Counted from the stretch's first letter, positions 9,449-32,608 are shown. The stretch is 37,027 nucleotides of DNA from a virus (IMGVR_UViG_2909303794_000007); one strand, 5' to 3'. Program-made: numbers and translations. Notes: generated by a model not told the origin, from the letters alone.

Positions 9449-10809
9449 CGTCCACCTCCGGAGAACAGGCCACCATCACGCATCTGTGTCTGAATTTCAT
9501 CACGGGCACCCTTGCGGGCCATGTCATACACCGCCTTCAGAGCAGCCGGACCTATCTGCCCGTTCGTGCCGTCGTTGTTAATCACCACATGGTTATTCTG
9601 CTCAAACGTCCCGGACGCCTGCGACCGGCTGTCTGCCATGCTGCCCGGTGTACCGACATAACCGCCGGTGGCATAGCCGCGCATCAGCCGGTAAAGATTC
9701 CCCACGCCAATCCGGCTGGTTGCCTCCTTCGTGAAGACAAACTCACCACGGTGAACAATCCCCGCTGGCTCATATTTGCCGCCGGTTCCCGTAAATCCTC
9801 CGGTTGCAAAATGGAATTTCGCCGCAGCGGCCTGAATGGCTGTACCGCCTGACGCGGATGCTCCACCACTGGCAGCACCGCCAATGGCGCTGCCGATACT
9901 CCCGACAATCCCCACCATTGCCTGCTTAAGCAGAATTTCTGTCATCATGGACAGCACGGAACGGGTGAAGCTGCGCCAGTTCTGCTCACTGCCGGTCAGC
10001 ATCGCCGCCATATTTTGTGCAATACCATCAAAGGTCTGCGTGGCTGCACTTTTAACCTGCGACATACTGTCCGTGGCGCTCTCTTCCCACTCACTCCAGC
10101 CGGACTTCAGGCCTGCCATCCAGCTCCCGCGAAGCTGGTCTTCAGCCGCCCAGGTCTTTTTCTGCTCTGACATGACGTTATTCAGCGCCAGCGGATTATC
10201 GCCATACTGTTCCTTCAGGCGCTGTTCCGTGGCTTCCCGTTCTGCCTGCCGGTCAGTCAGCCCCCGGCTTTTCGCATCAATGGCGGCCCGTTTTGCCCGT
10301 TGCTGCTGTGCGAATTTATCCGCCTGCTGCGCCAGCGCGTTCAGGCGCTCCTGATACGTAACCTTGTCGCCAAGTGCAGCCAGCTGGCGTTTGTACTCCA
10401 GCGTCTCATCTTTATGCGCCAGCAGGGATTTCTCCTGTGCAGACAGCTGGCGACGTTGCGCCGCCTCCTCCAGTACCGCGAACTGACTCTCCGCCTTCCA
10501 CAAATCCCGGCGCTGCTGGCTGATTTTCTCATTCGCTCCGGCATGCTTCTCCAGCGTCCGGAGTTCTGCCTGAAGCGTCAGCAGGGCAGCATGAGCACTG
10601 TCTTCCTGACGATCGCCCGCAGACACCTTCACGCCGGACTGTTTCGGCTTTTTCAGCGTCGCTTCATAATCCTTTTTCGCCGCCGCCATCAGCGTGTTGT
10701 AATCCGCCTGCAGGATTTTCCCGTCTTTCAGTGCCTTGTTCAGTTCTTCCTGACGGGCGGTATATTTCTCCAGCGGCGTCTGCAGCCGTTTGTAAGCCTT
10801 CTGCGCCTC
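9445..10809 (-). pseudogene. H: Tape-measure protein H, 5'-truncated at the IS1 boundary (C-terminal ~455 codons remain)
   Basis: The frame is open from the IS1 end at 10809 to the stop at 9445 and matches the lambda H C-terminal half (...EAQKAYKRLQTPLEKYTARQEELNKALKDGKILQADYNTLMAAAKKDYEATLKK...GGLFSGGGR). The N-terminal half of H is absent. Confidence 0.9.
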
Positions 10810-10864
10810 GGTGATGCTGCCAACTTACTGATTTAGTGTATGATGGTGTTTTTGAGGTGCTCCA

Positions 10865-11140
10865 GTGGCTTCTGTTTCTATCAGCTGTCCCTCCTGTTCA
10901 GCTACTGACGGGGTGGTGCGTAACGGCAAAAGCACCGCCGGACATCAGCGCTATCTCTGCTCTCACTGCCGTAAAACATGGCAACTGCAGTTCACTTACA
11001 CCGCTTCTCAACCCGGTACGCACCAGAAAATCATTGATATGGCCATGAATGGCGTTGGATGCCGGGCAACAGCCCGCATTATGGGCGTTGGCCTCAACAC
11101 GATTTTACGTCACTTAAAAAACTCAGGCCGCAGTCGGTAA
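10865..11140 (+). CDS. insA: IS1 InsA
   Basis: 91 aa, [43 protein letters not shown]... Confidence 0.95.
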
Positions 11141-11562
11141 CCTCGCGCATACAGCCGGGCAGTGACGTCATCGTCTGCGCGGAAATGGACGAACAGTGGG
11201 GCTATGTCGGGGCTAAATCGTGCCAGCGCTGGCTGTTTTACGCGTATGACAGGCTCCGGAAGACGGTTGTTGCGCACGTATTCGGTGAACGCACGATGGC
11301 GACGCTGGGGCGTCTTATGAGCCTGCTGTCACCCTTTGACGTGGTGATATGGATGACGGATGGCTGGCCGCTGTATGAATCCCGCCTGAAGGGAAAGCTG
11401 CACGTAATCAGCAAGCGATATACGCAGCGAATTGAGCGGCATAACCTGAATCTGAGGCAGCACCTGGCACGGCTGGGACGGAAGTCGCTGTCGTTCTCAA
11501 AATCGGTGGAGCTGCATGACAAAGTCATCGGGCATTATCTGAACATAAAACACTATCAATAA
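11059..11562 (+). CDS. insB: IS1 InsB reading frame (expressed as InsAB' by programmed -1 frameshift)
   Basis: 167-aa ORF in the -1 frame relative to insA, ending ...[11 protein letters not shown]. Confidence 0.9.
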
Positions 11563-11578
11563 GTTGGAGTCATTACCT

Positions 11579-11803
11579 ATGTCATCAAAGAACAGAACCC
11601 GCAGAACAACAACCCGCAACATCCGATTTCCAAACCAGATAATTGAACAAATTAACATCGCTCTTGACCTGAAAGGTTCAGGTAATTTTTCAGCGTGGGT
11701 TATTGAAGCCTGCAGAAGAAGATTAATTAATGAAAAATATTCTCAATTTGTACCCAACAAAGACAAACACGACCAGAGCACCTGTTCAGACAGGTTTACT
11801 TAA
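11579..11803 (+). CDS. Small ribbon-helix-helix (CopG/Arc-like) DNA-binding protein (~74 aa, start MSSKNRTRR...)
   Basis: Predicted beta-strand RNIRFP, then helices NQIIEQINIAL and NFSAWVIEACRRRL, the typical RHH pattern. ATG is 1 nt downstream of the IS1 right end; the track ORF starting inside IS1 (MESLP...) is an artefact. Confidence 0.45.
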   Translation: MSSKNRTRRTTTRNIRFPNQIIEQINIALDLKGSGNFSAWVIEACRRRLINEKYSQFVPNKDKHDQSTCSDRFT

Positions 11804-11820
11804 ACGACTTATATATGACA

Positions 11821-11849
11821 CAAAAAGCGACCACTAAAGTCGCTTTTTC
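11821..11849. terminator. Bidirectional terminator between the convergent RHH and PerC-like genes
   Basis: aaaaagcgaccactaaagtcgcttttt: stem gcgac/gtcgc flanked by A- and T-runs. Confidence 0.5.
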
Positions 11850-11884
11850 TTATGGTAACAGGCAATAACTCTCTCAGATATTTT

Positions 11885-12199
11885 TTAGCATTTTTTTGAC
11901 CGCGCGTTTCCGGACGTATTCTGTTCTCCTGTCCCTTTATATCGTCGGAATACCCGCCGCTCTTCAAATCCCATTCCCAACTCAGAATGTAGTCTGTTGA
12001 CCGCTTGTTTTATTTCGGTCAGGTTCACCGGTGAAACCGGAGTCCGGCGCGCCTTACGCAAACACTCTGCTCGTTTCTGTGCCGCCACTTTTCTTTTCTG
12101 GTCATCACTTAGCTGTACCATCACTTTTGCCCATCGTTCAGCTGCTCTCCGGTACAGTCCTTTTTTCTCCAGACATTCTGCCACGTGATCATGTAGCAT
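11885..12199 (-). CDS. PerC-family transcriptional activator (Pch-like, 104 aa)
   Basis: Motif AECLEKKGLYRRAAERWAKVM resembles the PerC/Pch signature (LExKGLWRRAAxRW) as I remember it; the size matches PchA/B/C. Preceded by ~460 bp of AT-rich non-coding DNA. Confidence 0.55.
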   Translation of the reverse strand: MLHDHVAECLEKKGLYRRAAERWAKVMVQLSDDQKRKVAAQKRAECLRKARRTPVSPVNLTEIKQAVNRLHSELGMGFEERRVFRRYKGTGEQNTSGNARSKKC

Positions 12200-12664
12200 A
12201 AGTGACCTCCGATTATCTACAGACTGCCATCCTGAATTTACCTTCCCTTAATGAAATAACAATAAAAAACAAGCCACGCAAAAACAATAAAACAACACAC
12301 AAAAAAAACTAAATAATAAACAAAAATAATCACCTTATTTTATTATTTTTTGAGGGAGCAATTACTGAACAAAAAACGCTGACTATATACTCAAAACCAA
12401 ACAACTATTCTGCCAATCAGGTATCATGGCAACACACGGAATTACCGTGTTTTTGCCTTCTCTGCCCATACAATACGGGCATATACTTCATTCTCTATTG
12501 TAATATTTCTATCCATGTGCCCCACTCCATTTACCTGTAAATAATATTCAAAATATTTATCACAGAAATCGTTTTTGGCCATGAACTGAGCACACTATAA
12601 AGTCCGGAACTGACTCTTTGTTAAATTACCTTAACGTTACCAGTAACACCTTCATAACAAAACA

Positions 12665-13132
12665 TCACGGTATACACTGGGTACGGATATATTCCTGTGC
12701 TCCTTCCAGTTGCTTCTGCATTGCCATCAGCCGTTCTCTGAGGATGAAATAATCCCGTTCAGCGGCTTCTGCCAGTCGGGGGCCGGTTGCATTATCCACG
12801 CCGGAGGTGCCGGTGGCTTCACGCACGGTACCGGAGCAGGTGGCGTTGATCCGCAGGCGCTTACGACCAGCGGCAACATCAGCACGCAGAGTTTCATTTT
12901 CAGCTCTCGCATCGGCTAATTCCCTCGAGTATCTGGCATCAAGTGCAGCGACATCACGCTGGCGTATCTGCATATCAGTAATTGTCGCGTTCGCCAGCTC
13001 CAGCTCACTGGCTTTTTTATCGCGCTGCTCTTTGTAGATGATGGCGTGATCACGGTAATGATTCAGCCCCAGACTAAGCGCACCACAGGCCACCAGCAGG
13101 ACAATGATAACCACGCACAGAACACGGTTCAT
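12665..13132 (-). CDS. Rz: Rz i-spanin (start taken at MNRVLCVVIIVLLVACG...)
   Basis: N-terminal transmembrane helix then a coiled-coil-rich periplasmic region; last gene of the lysis cassette; GGTGGTG Shine-Dalgarno upstream of the ATG at 13132. The track ORF extends to 13189. Confidence 0.8.
   Translation of the reverse strand: MNRVLCVVIIVLLVACGALSLGLNHYRDHAIIYKEQRDKKASELELANATITDMQIRQRDVAALDARYSRELADARAENETLRADVAAGRKRLRINATCSGTVREATGTSGVDNATGPRLAEAAERDYFILRERLMAMQKQLEGAQEYIRTQCIP
12727..12912 (-). CDS. Rz1: Rz1 o-spanin lipoprotein embedded in Rz in another frame
   Basis: MKLCVLMLPLVVSACGS... lipobox followed by a proline-rich sequence (PPAPVPCVKPPAPPAWIMQPAP), wholly inside Rz. Confidence 0.8.
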   Translation of the reverse strand: MRELKMKLCVLMLPLVVSACGSTPPAPVPCVKPPAPPAWIMQPAPDWQKPLNGIISSSENG

Positions 13133-13467
13133 ATCACCACCAACGGATTGCCCAGACCAGAACAGCAATGGCCACAATACGAATGGCAAAAGCTGCCGCT
13201 CTTGTTAAATCCAGACTGGCTGGCGTCTCCACTTCAATGCCTTTCATAATGGACAACCTCAGAAAGAATCTTTTATACTTCCTCACAGGGAAAGTACCTC
13301 CCTACCCATAATTTCTCCCTTGCCTTACTCAAGGTCAGAAAACACAAAACCCCGCTTGCTGCCAACAAACGGGGTTTTTACTTTTATTCACTTAGGTTTT
13401 ACCAGTTTTCAGGATTTCGTGTTATCCACCCGCGTTGGCCAACGTCATTTTTCAGGAAAATATTCTG

Positions 13468-17193: not shown

Positions 17194-17507
17194 CGAATTT
17201 CTCCCGTGTACAGGAACAGAGTTAAAAAGCCGGAACCGGAATCAAATCACAGGATGACCATCTGCCAGTGGCTGGTCGTAAAAAAAAGGCCGCGCCATGC
17301 GCAGCCGGAAATAAAGGGATAACGATGATAGTTTGAGAAAAACAGAAATAACACTTTTGTGGCAAAGCATGGTGCCGGGTGCCTCCCGGTGAATTCAGTA
17401 CCAGCACCTGAATCCGCGATTATCCCATATACCTACTCGCTGATTGCCCCTCCGCACAGGGGGATTCACCATGCAGAAGTGTTTTTAATAAACAGCAAAC
17501 AAAAAAA

Positions 17508-18273: not shown

Positions 18274-18350
18274 TGGCGCGTTGTAGTGGAGTCGAACCAC
18301 TGACCGATTGCTTAGAAGGCAATTGCTCTGTCCGGCTGAGCTAACAACGC
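18274..18350 (-). tRNA. tRNA-Arg (anticodon UCU), phage argN/argO-like
   Basis: Reverse complement GCGTTGTTAGCTCAG...ATTGC-CTTCTAA-GCAAT...GGTTCGACTCC...ACAACGC-G-CCA: cloverleaf with anticodon loop CU-UCU-AA, T-arm GGTTCGACTCC and a 3' CCA. Confidence 0.85.
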
Positions 18351-18387: not shown

Positions 18388-19725
18388 CATAAGCGCTAAC
18401 TTAAGGGTTGAACCATCTGAAGAATGCGACGCCTCGGTGCCTCGTTAAGACGATGCCTCGCGTTCTTCAATTGCGTTTTGTAGGCTGTCAGGGATACTGT
18501 CCCACGAATGGCCACCTGTAAGCTCCAGATGACCATTTTTGTTATTCTCCACAACGAGTTAGTTCTTCTTTTCGGATCCGGCACTTCTGGGGGGGAAATC
18601 CAGCGATGGCTGGATTATGTCGTCAATTAAAAATGCGGCGAGTAGATTAGCAAATATCCACGCTTTCGCGAGTTCAGGTTCCTTTGCACGCAAAGCATCC
18701 AGGTGCAGCAAACTTTTGAGCCGCTTAAAAGCCAGTTCAATTTGCCATCGCAGACGGTAACAATCAGCCACTTGCTCTGCTGAATATTCATCTTCCGGTA
18801 ATGATGTTAGCAATAGCACATGGCCCGCTGCTTCCAGCGTTTCCGCCTGAACTACTCGTCCTTTTCGACGATTCTCGCTGAGCAGTCGGGTTTTACTGAT
18901 TAATGCTTTTTCGGGAGGAAGTGATACGGCAATGAGACGTGCCGGAAAGGGAGCTCCGGCTTTTTTATTACCTGAATTGCCTATCATTACAGTGGTTTCA
19001 CCGTTCTTACCGCAATCCAGCCCGCGCAGAAAACCCATCATGTCAAAGCGCATTCCTTCTGCAGTTAACCAGCGCAATCCTCGCCAGTGAACCCGGACGA
19101 TATAATCAGCTTCTCCAAAAGCAAGTGAGCGGATACATTCGGGACGCGAACCGAATCCCCGGTCAGCAATGCGTATCTCGTCTGCCGTTTGCGCAAATCG
19201 GTCCAGCCGTTCAGCGTCTCTGCTGTCGGTTAGCTCAAAATCAGTGAACTGACAGGTATGAGGATCATATCCCATATGTAGTCGCCATTCAGCGCTGCCG
19301 CCCCCGGGCGCACTGATTGCTGTTCCATCGACAAGACGCAATCTCTTTCCGCTTGTACAACCCGTAACTGCGGCGCGTACAGCAAGTGTTTGTGCGGCAA
19401 GTATGCCAAACCAGTCGGCGGCATTCCGCAGCCGCTTCAGGAGAGCCACGTCAGATAATGTTGCAACGTCATGGAGCTGAGCCCATGCAGTGACTTCACG
19501 TAATGACATCCCCCGGGGCCGTAAGCCAGCCCCAGACGTAGCAGAGTTGCAGCATCACGAATTTCGCGGCGGCGGGTTAGAGCCCCGGCATTACGTGCCG
19601 AAGTATCCAGTTCTTCGGGCTTACCAATATGGGCCAGAATTGCTGACCAGTTATCGTGAGAGTAATTCATCGGCACGTTAAATCATATCAGGCGTAATAC
19701 CACAACCCTTAAGTTAGCGCTTATG
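18388..19725 (-). mobile_element. IS186 (1338 bp) inserted into a GC-rich hairpin between the two phage tRNA genes
   Basis: Terminal inverted repeats cataagcgctaacttaagggttg (18388-18410) and caacccttaagttagcgcttatg (19703-19725), flanked by a direct repeat GGACCCGCCCC (~11 bp) at 18377-18387 and 19726-19736. Confidence 0.9.
18559..19676 (-). pseudogene. IS186 transposase (IS4 family) with a 1-bp frameshift near 19510-19514
   Basis: N-terminal ORF MNYSHDNWSAILAHIGKPEELDTSARNAG...GLAYGPGG and C-terminal ORF MSLREVTAWAQLHDV... are in different frames; one extra base in the G/C run would join them. Confidence 0.75.
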
Positions 19726-19798: not shown

Positions 19799-19874
19799 TG
19801 GTGGCCCTTGCTGGATTTGAACCAGCGACCTGGCGATTATGAGTCGCTCGCTCTCACCACTGAGCTAAAGGGCC
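19799..19874 (-). tRNA. ileZ: tRNA with anticodon CAU, Ile2-like (phage ileZ-like)
   Basis: Reverse complement GGCCCTTTAGCTCAGTGGTGAGAGCGAGCGACTCATAATCGCCAGGTCGCTGGTTCAAATCCAGCAAGGGCCACCA closely resembles E. coli tRNA-Ile2 (ileX/ileY). Confidence 0.85.
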
Positions 19875-24194: not shown

Positions 24195-25283
24195 ATGCAA
24201 ATGCAGCATCTGATGGTTGGCTATCCTAAGTACTACCAAACGGCCGATTATGCGTTGAGGCTTTCAGTGATGGCTGATATAGCAACAATGAGAATGAAGG
24301 CTCTGCACTTCTGGGATAAACACGGTATTTCTGCAGCTTCTGAAGCCTTTGGCGTGTCCTGCCGCACGCTTTACTGGTGGCGTCAGTTACTGAACAAGGA
24401 AGGACCTGAGGGGCTAATCCCGCACAGTAAGGCACCTCTGGTGCGACGAAAAAAACACTGGCATCCCGATGTGCTGAAAGAGATTCGACGCCTCAGGACA
24501 GAGCTGCCGAACCTCGGTAAAGAGCAGATTTTTGTTCGCCTGAAGCCCTGGTGCGAACAGCGCTATCTGGCCTGTCCGAGTGTTTCCACCATCGGCAGAA
24601 TGATCGCTGCCGCACATGATAAAATGCGGATGATACCTGTGCGTCTGGGATCGCGGGGGAAGGCACTGCTTGTCAAAAAGCGGTCTGCCAAACCCCGCAG
24701 GCCAAAGCACTACCGCCCGGTAAAGACAGGTGAGCTCATTGGGATGGACGCCATTGAGCTCAGAATGGGCGAACTGCGTCGCTATGTCATCACCATGATC
24801 GACGAATGCAGCAATTACGCGCTGGCGCTGGCTGTGCCGTCACTCAACAGTGATATCGTCAATCACTTCTTCAGCCGCGCAGCCCGGTTGTTCCCGGTCG
24901 GTATCAGCCAGATAATCACAGATAACGGAAAAGAGTTCCTGGGAAACTTCGACAAAACGCTGCAGGAAGCCGCTATCAAACACCTCTGGACCTATCCCTA
25001 CACGCCAAAAATGAACGCTATCTGTGAACGTTTTAACCGGACGTTAAGAGAGCAGTTTATTGAATTTAATGAGATTTTACTCTTTGAAGATCTGGCGCTA
25101 TTTAACCAGAAGCTGGCGGAATATCTGGTGCTGTATAACAGCAAAAGACCCCACAAGGCGCTCGCACTAATGACGCCCGTGGAATATATTTTAAAAGAGA
25201 ATAAAAATTGCAATATGTGGTGGACCCATACATCTCCTTGCCTTTCGGCACGTAAGAGGCTAACCTACGTTTGTGAAGCATAG
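24195..25283 (+). CDS. DDE-type transposase/integrase (rve superfamily, N-terminal HTH; IS481-like single-ORF layout)
   Basis: 362 aa; N-terminal HTH region, central ...IITDNGKEF... and C-terminal ...YNSKRPHKAL... typical of the integrase core domain. The only plus-strand gene in a minus-strand block. IS ends not identified. Confidence 0.65.
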   Translation: MQMQHLMVGYPKYYQTADYALRLSVMADIATMRMKALHFWDKHGISAASEAFGVSCRTLYWWRQLLNKEGPEGLIPHSKAPLVRRKKHWHPDVLKEIRRLRTELPNLGKEQIFVRLKPWCEQRYLACPSVSTIGRMIAAAHDKMRMIPVRLGSRGKALLVKKRSAKPRRPKHYRPVKTGELIGMDAIELRMGELRRYVITMIDECSNYALALAVPSLNSDIVNHFFSRAARLFPVGISQIITDNGKEFLGNFDKTLQEAAIKHLWTYPYTPKMNAICERFNRTLREQFIEFNEILLFEDLALFNQKLAEYLVLYNSKRPHKALALMTPVEYILKENKNCNMWWTHTSPCLSARKRLTYVCEA

Positions 25284-25689
25284 ATTGGGCCTCAGATTAA
25301 TGTTAAGCGTCTTGCAGGACGCGTAATGTTAACTGGGGCTTTTCTCTGTCTGCCTTACGGTGGCATGCCCGAGGCAGACAGCCTCAAGCACCCGCAGCAA
25401 TTCTACTTAACTCTCGCTTTACCGCAAACCGTTTTTACCCGATATGGGAATTCCCATATCGTAATGAATTCAGTTCCCTAGTCGATCCATCAAAAACACA
25501 ACCAGGCAGTAAACGCCCACAACAGCAACAACAGCCAGCGCACCTTCCATTGCCAGTGATATATCATCCGACATATTCCCTCCTTTGGTGTTAATCCCGG
25601 CGAACGTTTTTACCCTCACCGACAAATAACATATACTAAAAAAGCGATAGCCATAGCAACGCCTGTAATTGCAAATGCTTCAGGCCAGT

Positions 25690-32552: not shown

Positions 32553-32608
32553 TTTCTGGTGACGTTTGGCGGTATCAGTTTTACTCCGTGACTGCTCTGC
32601 CGCCCTTT
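32553..32608 (+). ncRNA. dicF: DicF small RNA homologue (cell-division-inhibiting sRNA)
   Basis: tttctggtgacgtttggcggtatcagttttactccgtgactgctctgccgcccttttt matches DicF as I remember it (3' intrinsic terminator ggcgg...ccgcc-U5) and lies immediately upstream of dicB as in Qin. Confidence 0.6.

Follow-up and report, generated by a model that had tools for sequence, protein, structure and literature searches.

A pchA-type regulator gene with its AT-rich upstream region, and an IS1 deletion junction, at the right end of a defective Sp14-like lambdoid prophage

The viral sequence IMGVR_UViG_2909303794_000007, a stretch of 37,027 nucleotides that was analysed in full and is referred to here as the window, contains at positions 11,579 to 12,664 two small convergent genes and a long AT-rich non-coding region that lie directly beside a copy of the insertion sequence IS1. 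An earlier note, made from the sequence alone, had read this interval as regulatory cargo in which a gene for a ribbon-helix-helix (RHH) protein is paired with a gene for a PerC/Pch-like activator. We read it instead as a slot for accessory ('moron') genes, located at a prophage's right end between the lysis gene Rz and the former cos site, and holding a gene of the pchA type together with its AT-rich region and a bidirectional terminator. The second gene, ylcI, belongs to the lambdoid backbone, IS1 marks the site of a deletion, and the window is a defective Sp14/CP-933U-like lambdoid prophage that has kept tccP, pch, and dicF. We hold this reading, taken as a whole, with considerable confidence. 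The arrangement is one that is already known, comprising a standard pchA regulator and its control region with no new mechanism, and it fits a familiar pattern in which virulence regulators and effectors are kept and the phage morphogenesis genes decay. The features are listed in Table 1; IS1, the ylcI start codon 1 nt from its end, the 104-residue open reading frame (ORF), and the AT-rich region are all confirmed as described earlier, in every coordinate that was stated.

The earlier assignment of the 104-residue ORF, pch, to the PerC/Pch family is well supported. Its product scores 149.3 bits against PF06069 (cutoff 22.6), a match that covers positions 1-89 of the 90 in the model. At 100% identity it has the same sequence as PchA of Escherichia coli O157:H7 Sakai (ECs_1091), and it is two residues apart from Sakai PchC (V6L, V58M). 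Identity to the plasmid-encoded PerC proteins of E. coli and E. albertii, on plasmids that are presumably of the EAF type, is 46-48% over residues 2-88. The product is named 'PchABC family transcriptional regulator' in a public protein collection, and the exact sequence is present on at least 1000 contigs. With group 1 of the Pch proteins defined as in PMC6265319, it fits the 104-residue members PchA, PchB, and PchC, and not PchD, PchE, or PerC. Judged by these protein comparisons, the regulator in the window is the known group 1 pch gene in its standard pchA allele, and not a new 'Pch-like' regulator.

The similarity to Sakai is not confined to the coding sequence. Positions 11722-13300 of the window, which span the 3' end of ylcI, pch, the AT-rich region, and Rz, are 99.6% identical to the Sakai pchA locus, and the AT-rich region, which forms part of this match, is itself identical to that of an intact locus. 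Of 5426 complete E. coli genomes, 671 contain the module of ylcI, pch, AT-rich region, and Rz at a query coverage of at least 80%; the top-listed matches are all 99.6-99.8% identical and include O145, O103, and O55:H7 strains. At the same coverage it was found in none of 50,697 deposited phage genomes. The window and its relatives share the order Rz, AT-rich region, pch, and ylcI, followed in the relatives by cos, which places pch downstream of the lysis cassette of a lambdoid prophage. It is a moron inserted between ylcI and Rz, in the slot that holds bor in phage lambda.

PchA, PchB, and PchC are master activators of the type III secretion system encoded by the LEE (locus of enterocyte effacement) in enterohaemorrhagic E. 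coli (EHEC), and the presence of the gene informs the virulence annotation of the source strain. These proteins are needed for full expression of ler and the LEE and for adherence (PMC6265319; PMC4456613), and Pch displaces H-NS/StpA both at LEE1 and at effector loci, among them espJ-tccP, a locus within the Pch/Ler regulon (PMC4764244). Going by this published work on the identical protein, the Pch of the window would bind DNA that is AT-rich and coated by H-NS, both at the promoter of LEE1/ler and at espJ-tccP and other effector loci, relieve silencing by H-NS/StpA, and switch on type III secretion. The proposal in the earlier note that pch and tccP form a coherent pair on one prophage agrees with this, and the pairing is already documented in the Sakai prophage Sp14, which carries espJ-tccP and pchC. 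The pchA gene is controlled by LrhA, Lrp/butyrate, and LeuO (PMC4456613), and the small RNA (sRNA) DicF activates its translation by opening a structure between the Shine-Dalgarno (SD) and anti-SD sequences (PMC7769764). Since pch and its upstream region are unchanged in the window from the intact loci, the regulation of pchA by LrhA, Lrp/butyrate, and LeuO, and by DicF at the level of translation, should apply here as well. We note that pch and its published sRNA activator DicF are co-resident on the one prophage. An unconstrained prediction of the DicF-pch duplex returned an uninterpretable structure with a long loop and was not used.

The element that abuts ylcI has the properties that define IS1, namely a length of 768 bp, terminal inverted repeats of about 23 bp (23 bp in this copy, GGTGATGCTGCCAACTTACTGAT and GGTAATGACTCCAACTTATTGAT), and the insA and insB' frames, of which insA is at 10865-11140 and insB' ends at 11562. 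No 9-bp target-site duplication was found at its ends, where the flanks CTGCGCCTC and TATGTCATC are unlike each other. A single T, at 11578, lies between the end of IS1 and the ylcI start codon (11579-11581), which is thus 1 nt from IS1, and the homology of the window to intact loci starts precisely at this T. On Sakai Sp14 (L003) the two breakpoints map to 15579, within the tape-measure gene, and to 25168, at the ATG of ylcI, and the equivalent of approximately 9.6 kb of Sp14 between them is absent from the window. The lost segment includes the tape-measure N-terminus, the tail shaft, head, portal, and terminase genes, cos, and the region upstream of ylcI with its promoter and SD sequence. 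The missing duplication, together with the absence of the roughly 9.6-kb equivalent, shows that IS1 sits at a deletion or recombination junction and is not a simple insertion, a point that the earlier note had missed.

The loss of cos and of the terminase, head, and portal genes leaves the prophage unable to package DNA. IS1 now joins ylcI to the middle of the tape-measure gene, and the deletion has immobilised a prophage that still carries tccP, pch, and dicF. A search of the 5426 complete RefSeq E. coli genomes recovered neither of the two IS1 junctions, and the event is therefore strain- or lineage-specific. An exact look-up of the cut-down tape-measure product returned two metagenome scaffolds only, neither with the IS1 context.

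The gene next to IS1 belongs to the ylcI/ynfO family, its product scoring 63.8 bits against PF13132 (cutoff 25) and 34.5 bits against NCBIfam NF041551 (YlcI_YnfO_N; cutoff 30). The product is identical to WP_001300236.1 of an intact prophage, as annotated by the Prokaryotic Genome Annotation Pipeline (PGAP), with the same start and the same length of 74 residues, and its initiating methionine is shared with the lambda homologue and all aligned relatives, which have the N-terminus MS[ST]KN in common. The earlier note had allowed that the small gene might be a truncated fragment of a larger one interrupted by IS1; it proves to be full length against WP_001300236.1, the lambda homologue, and the other relatives. 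In the intact prophage the order is terminase, cos (AGGTCGCCGCCC), and then ylcI, approximately 400 bp from the small-terminase gene, and the gene normally lies approximately 200 bp from cos. In lambda (J02459) the homologue begins 199 bp in from the genome's right end, and its first ~150 bp are 86.5% identical at the DNA level. We note that the lambda record leaves this 65-residue DUF3950 homologue unannotated, at approximately J02459 complement(48106..48303) (L005 reverse complement 200-397), and that other lambda-like records label their ylcI/ynfO homologue a hypothetical protein.

The two homologues in E. coli K-12 are ylcI itself, beside nohD in the prophage DLP12, and ynfO, beside nohA in Qin; in lambda, DLP12, and Qin alike the gene adjoins cos, and pch is absent from all three. 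These homologues have the same nearly invariant N-terminal DUF3950/YlcI_YnfO_N core of about 50 residues as the window gene, and the same position and orientation beside cos and the small-terminase gene, whereas the C-terminal tails vary within the family and, in the window, IS1 replaces the native upstream 200 bp. An exhaustive profile search of 1.8 billion representatives recovered only a small family (193 members at E ≤ 0.001) without a link to any named family, and a literature search did not find a functional study of YlcI/YnfO. Sequence and position together mark ylcI as a conserved component of the lambdoid backbone next to the right cos, and not as a partner of Pch.

The earlier note was right that the native upstream sequence of the small gene had been lost to the IS1 end: the segment ACGGGGCAACATT-ATG of the intact loci, with its SD-like ACGGGG, is absent from the window. 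A hybrid promoter at the junction would be impossible because its -10 element would sit inside the coding sequence, and any expression of ylcI would need the transcript of IS1 itself. We suggest that ylcI is now silent, or else would be weakly expressed as the distal cistron of the IS1 insA/insB' transcript, with the GGAG at the IS1 end serving as its SD sequence.

A different view is that IS1 came to lie at the ylcI start codon by site preference or by selection, and that read-out from IS1, together with the GGAG, gives ylcI a new and possibly beneficial expression. The spacing would suit this, the ATG being preceded by the GGAG at 9 nt and by the insB' stop codon at 16 nt, and there is a parallel in the Qin prophage of strain QL57EC, where a separate deletion event has left an IS1 junction just 2-5 nt upstream of the ATG of ynfO, the homologue there being only ~91% identical; several further genomes have IS1 some 40-550 bp upstream of ylcI or ynfO. 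However, there are just two such start-codon junctions among 5426 genomes, the internal promoter of IS1 is weak and is repressed by InsA, and other insertion sequence junctions at pch loci destroy ylcI, contrary to what selection for its expression would predict. The target TATGTCATC also resembles the IS1 end GTCATTACC, and a hot spot would account for the recurrence without selection. We consider this alternative unlikely. With two IS1 events and a target that looks like the IS1 end, a hot spot is as good an explanation as selection, and the spot near the ylcI/ynfO start may be an IS1 target hot spot whose sequence resembles the IS1 end GTCAT. We note that the junction in QL57EC (NZ_CP172108, L004 2560-2590) runs ydfJ', IS1, ynfO and lies at almost the same spot as that in the window.

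The description of the small gene product as an RHH protein is plausible but weakly supported. The family core of about 50 residues is nearly invariant (TTTRNIRFPNQxIEQINIAL..KGSGNFSAWVIEACRRRL) and is followed by variable tails. An AlphaFold2 model of the monomer, of moderate confidence, has residues 13-18 extended, a helix at 19-32, and a second helix at 34-55, with a predicted local distance difference test (pLDDT) score of about 76 in the core and a mean of 64-67. Profile comparisons place YlcI in a single register with Arc (P=0.018), Mnt, and CopG, all below threshold, and a profile search of Protein Data Bank (PDB) sequences has CdbA (E=0.12) and a CopG-family protein (E=0.45) in its top five, neither of them significant. 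In this register the segment RNIRFP(N)xxIExI...G..FSAWVIEACRRRL of YlcI lines up with the beta-strand and with helices A and B of Arc, Mnt, CdbA, and the CopG-family structure. Fold searches with YlcI gave no significant match, a single-protein search of PDB sequences gave nothing, and no RHH family came up consistently in Pfam scans at lax thresholds, whether of 20 or of 30 relatives. Taking model and matches together, we think it reasonably likely that YlcI has the RHH fold, and the protein is probably a small RHH-like DNA-binding protein, although none of its matches to the Arc, Mnt, and CopG repressors is significant and its dimerisation and DNA binding are only putative.

A more ambitious proposal would make YlcI/YnfO an unrecognised RHH DNA-binding protein with a real role beside the right cos, the stretch around its start codon an IS1 hot spot, and the IS1 junctions in the window and in QL57EC a source of read-out expression that alters prophage or virulence regulation. 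We regard this as quite improbable. Were it true, the role of YlcI/YnfO might lie, for example, in control of the packaging site or the late region, or in lysogen physiology. A DUF3950 gene that is conserved beside cos even in phage lambda is the one loose end of some general interest here.

Between the convergent ylcI and pch genes lies a hairpin with the properties of a bidirectional intrinsic terminator (AAAAAGCGAC-loop-GTCGCTTTTT, flanked by A/T runs); the 80-nt intergenic sequence folds with -12.3 and -17.3 kcal/mol on the two strands, and the hairpin is invariant in 4 of 4 aligned loci. Convergence upon one shared terminator, and the joint presence of the two genes in hundreds of genomes, might be taken to indicate a functional two-gene cassette, in which the RHH-like protein represses or tunes pch, or is itself tuned by convergent transcription, with IS1 rewiring the circuit. 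In K-12, ylcI and ybcW, which occupies the equivalent slot, form a convergent transcriptional overlap or 'excludon' (PMC12288877), and the register of the YlcI core with the repressors Arc, Mnt, and CdbA and a CopG-family protein points the same way. Against this, the ylcI homologues of lambda, DLP12, and Qin adjoin cos with no pch present, and the co-occurrence of the two genes is explained by their shared location between Rz and cos. Moreover, at the Sakai pchA locus, the best-studied functional one, an IS629 junction at the equivalent of window position 11722 leaves just the last ~80 bp of ylcI, and in strain SCPM-O-B-9504 an IS1 junction takes the first two thirds of ylcI and leaves pch intact. 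Because IS629 and IS1 truncate ylcI at these two loci, ylcI is dispensable for pch. We find the two-gene cassette very hard to credit, and the 'regulatory cargo' of the earlier note resolves into a backbone gene that occurs without pch and a moron beside it.

Insertion sequence junctions recur elsewhere just downstream of pch, and in every case they leave pch and the sequence upstream of it untouched. In Sakai Sp4 (L008 32131-39827) the segment from pchA to the lysis genes is inverted between the IS629 that truncates ylcI and a copy of ISEc8, and in SCPM-O-B-9504 (L002, NZ_CP144930, ~3460-4320) IS1 forms the link between gpJ and what is left of ylcI, its 3' third.

The region upstream of pch is as AT-rich as had been claimed. 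Its GC content of 33.5%, compared with 51.1% for the whole window, makes it essentially the lowest 465-bp stretch in the 37 kb (0.05th percentile). It contains the SD sequence of pch, GGAGGT, at 12207-12212, and its sense strand has a long U-rich tract. The earlier term, a '~460-bp AT-rich leader', is accurate as to composition and length, and the region is better described as an intergenic regulatory region than as a leader; the transcript of pch would start somewhere within it. A repeat search of the region gave nothing meaningful, and Rfam has no match in it at the gathering thresholds. That the interval encodes a small protein or an sRNA, and is not purely regulatory, is scarcely credible: a 46-residue ORF (12442-12582, minus strand) has an uninterrupted frame in the window and in two other loci, and keeps it in Sakai Sp14 even with nine substitutions, but it was rejected as coding since eight of the nine substitutions relative to Sp14 are non-synonymous, it is uncalled by PGAP and in the Sakai annotation, and it has no Pfam match, so that it is probably not a gene, and no Rfam match to an sRNA appears even at E ≤ 1.

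The following points weigh against our reading of the interval as a pchA-type moron with its control region in a prophage reduced by an IS1 deletion. A scan for sigma-70-like promoters gave a single match on the pch strand (12432-12404), which is no better than chance, with 2 sites against 2.8 expected in shuffled sequence. Occupancy of the upstream region by H-NS, and the silencing by H-NS that the earlier note suggested, are plausible from base composition alone, and the Pch/LEE literature examined yielded nothing on H-NS at the promoter of pch. Finally, no sister genome carries the IS1 junctions (0 of 5426) against which the history of the deletion could be checked.

Table 1. Features in and around the pch interval, and the dicF gene, with positions in the window.
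Feature	Position	Strand	Basis
Tape-measure gene, C-terminal fragment, cut by IS1 at 10809/10810	9445..10809	-	Pfam Tape_meas_lam_C, E=1.3e-21
IS1, 768 bp	10810..11577	+	Pfam InsA domains and DDE_Tnp_IS1 (E=2.9e-77)
GGAG in the right end of IS1, putative and sole remaining SD candidate for ylcI	11566..11569	+	9 nt upstream of ATG
ylcI/ynfO-family gene, DUF3950, 74 residues, intact	11579..11803	+	Pfam PF13132, E=1.3e-17
Bidirectional intrinsic-terminator hairpin with A/T-run flanks	11823..11848		RNA folds
pch, 104 residues, PerC family	11885..12199	-	Pfam PerC (PF06069), E=3.8e-44
Intergenic regulatory region, 465 bp, AT-rich	12200..12664	-	Composition; between pch and Rz
Rz lysis gene, longest ORF in frame; last late gene upstream of pch	12665..13189	-	Pfam Phage_lysis, E=1.7e-48
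DicF sRNA gene	32554..32605	+	Rfam RF00039, 76.7 bits (gathering score 48)

The remainder of the window has the organisation of a lambdoid prophage. For Rz, PGAP calls a 468-bp gene in the relatives; an ORF for an Rz1-like lipoprotein is embedded at 12727-12912, and the endolysin gene is next. The left end of the window carries genes for a TccP-like protein, the tail fibre, a split Lom, and J, and to the right of the lysis cassette are a SASA esterase, STnc100, two tRNAs around an IS4-family element, a methylase, Q, hok/sok, CI, DicF, an exonuclease, and the integrase. The TccP/EspFU-like ORF (1-1035, plus strand) has six EspF proline-rich repeats (Pfam EspF, E=1.8e-175) and, as it opens right at the edge of the window, may have its true N-terminus beyond it. 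The Lom/Ail gene is split (2897-3495, minus strand), with an ORF at 3094-3495 that corresponds to Pfam positions 1-129 of 199 and an overlapping ORF at 2897-3169 that corresponds to the C-terminal part, which suggests a frameshifted pseudogene. The IS4-family element, which encodes a 316-residue transposase (18559-19509, minus strand), lies between a tRNA(cat) gene (19799-19874) and a tRNA-Arg(tct) gene (18274-18350); the Sakai prophages have three adjacent tRNAs at this location (ileZ-argN-argO), the middle one of which, tRNA-Arg(tcg), was not detected in the window, and the IS4-family element may have disrupted it. The sok antisense RNA of a hok/sok-type toxin-antitoxin locus is at 25227-25393 (minus strand), and the match to the STnc100 sRNA is at 17331-17503 (minus strand).

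Among known systems, the closest parallel in layout is Sakai Sp14, a prophage of the CP-933U type carrying pchC (ECs_2737), which has the same succession of espJ/tccP, tail fibre, Lom, and J, then ylcI, pch, Rz, endolysin, and holin, and then Q, CI, dicB/DicF, exonuclease, and integrase, and in which tccP and pch are likewise on one element. Sp14 keeps cos and the terminase, head, and tail genes that the window lacks, and the tail genes of the window are only 76-80% identical to those of Sp14, so that the window represents a mosaic relative and not Sp14 itself. The pchA locus of Sakai Sp4 (ECs_1091) resembles the window in that an insertion sequence abuts the module just downstream of pch, but there the element is IS629 and ylcI is truncated, whereas in the window it is IS1 and the ylcI ORF is whole but promoterless. 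More distantly, the PerC protein of typical enteropathogenic E. coli (EPEC) belongs to the same Pfam family as the Pch of the window, and both activate LEE1/ler according to the literature; PerC, however, is encoded on the pEAF plasmid within the perABC operon and is without the C-terminal tail of PchA, PchB, and PchC, and the dependence of the LEE on its regulator differs between EPEC and EHEC (PMC4764244).

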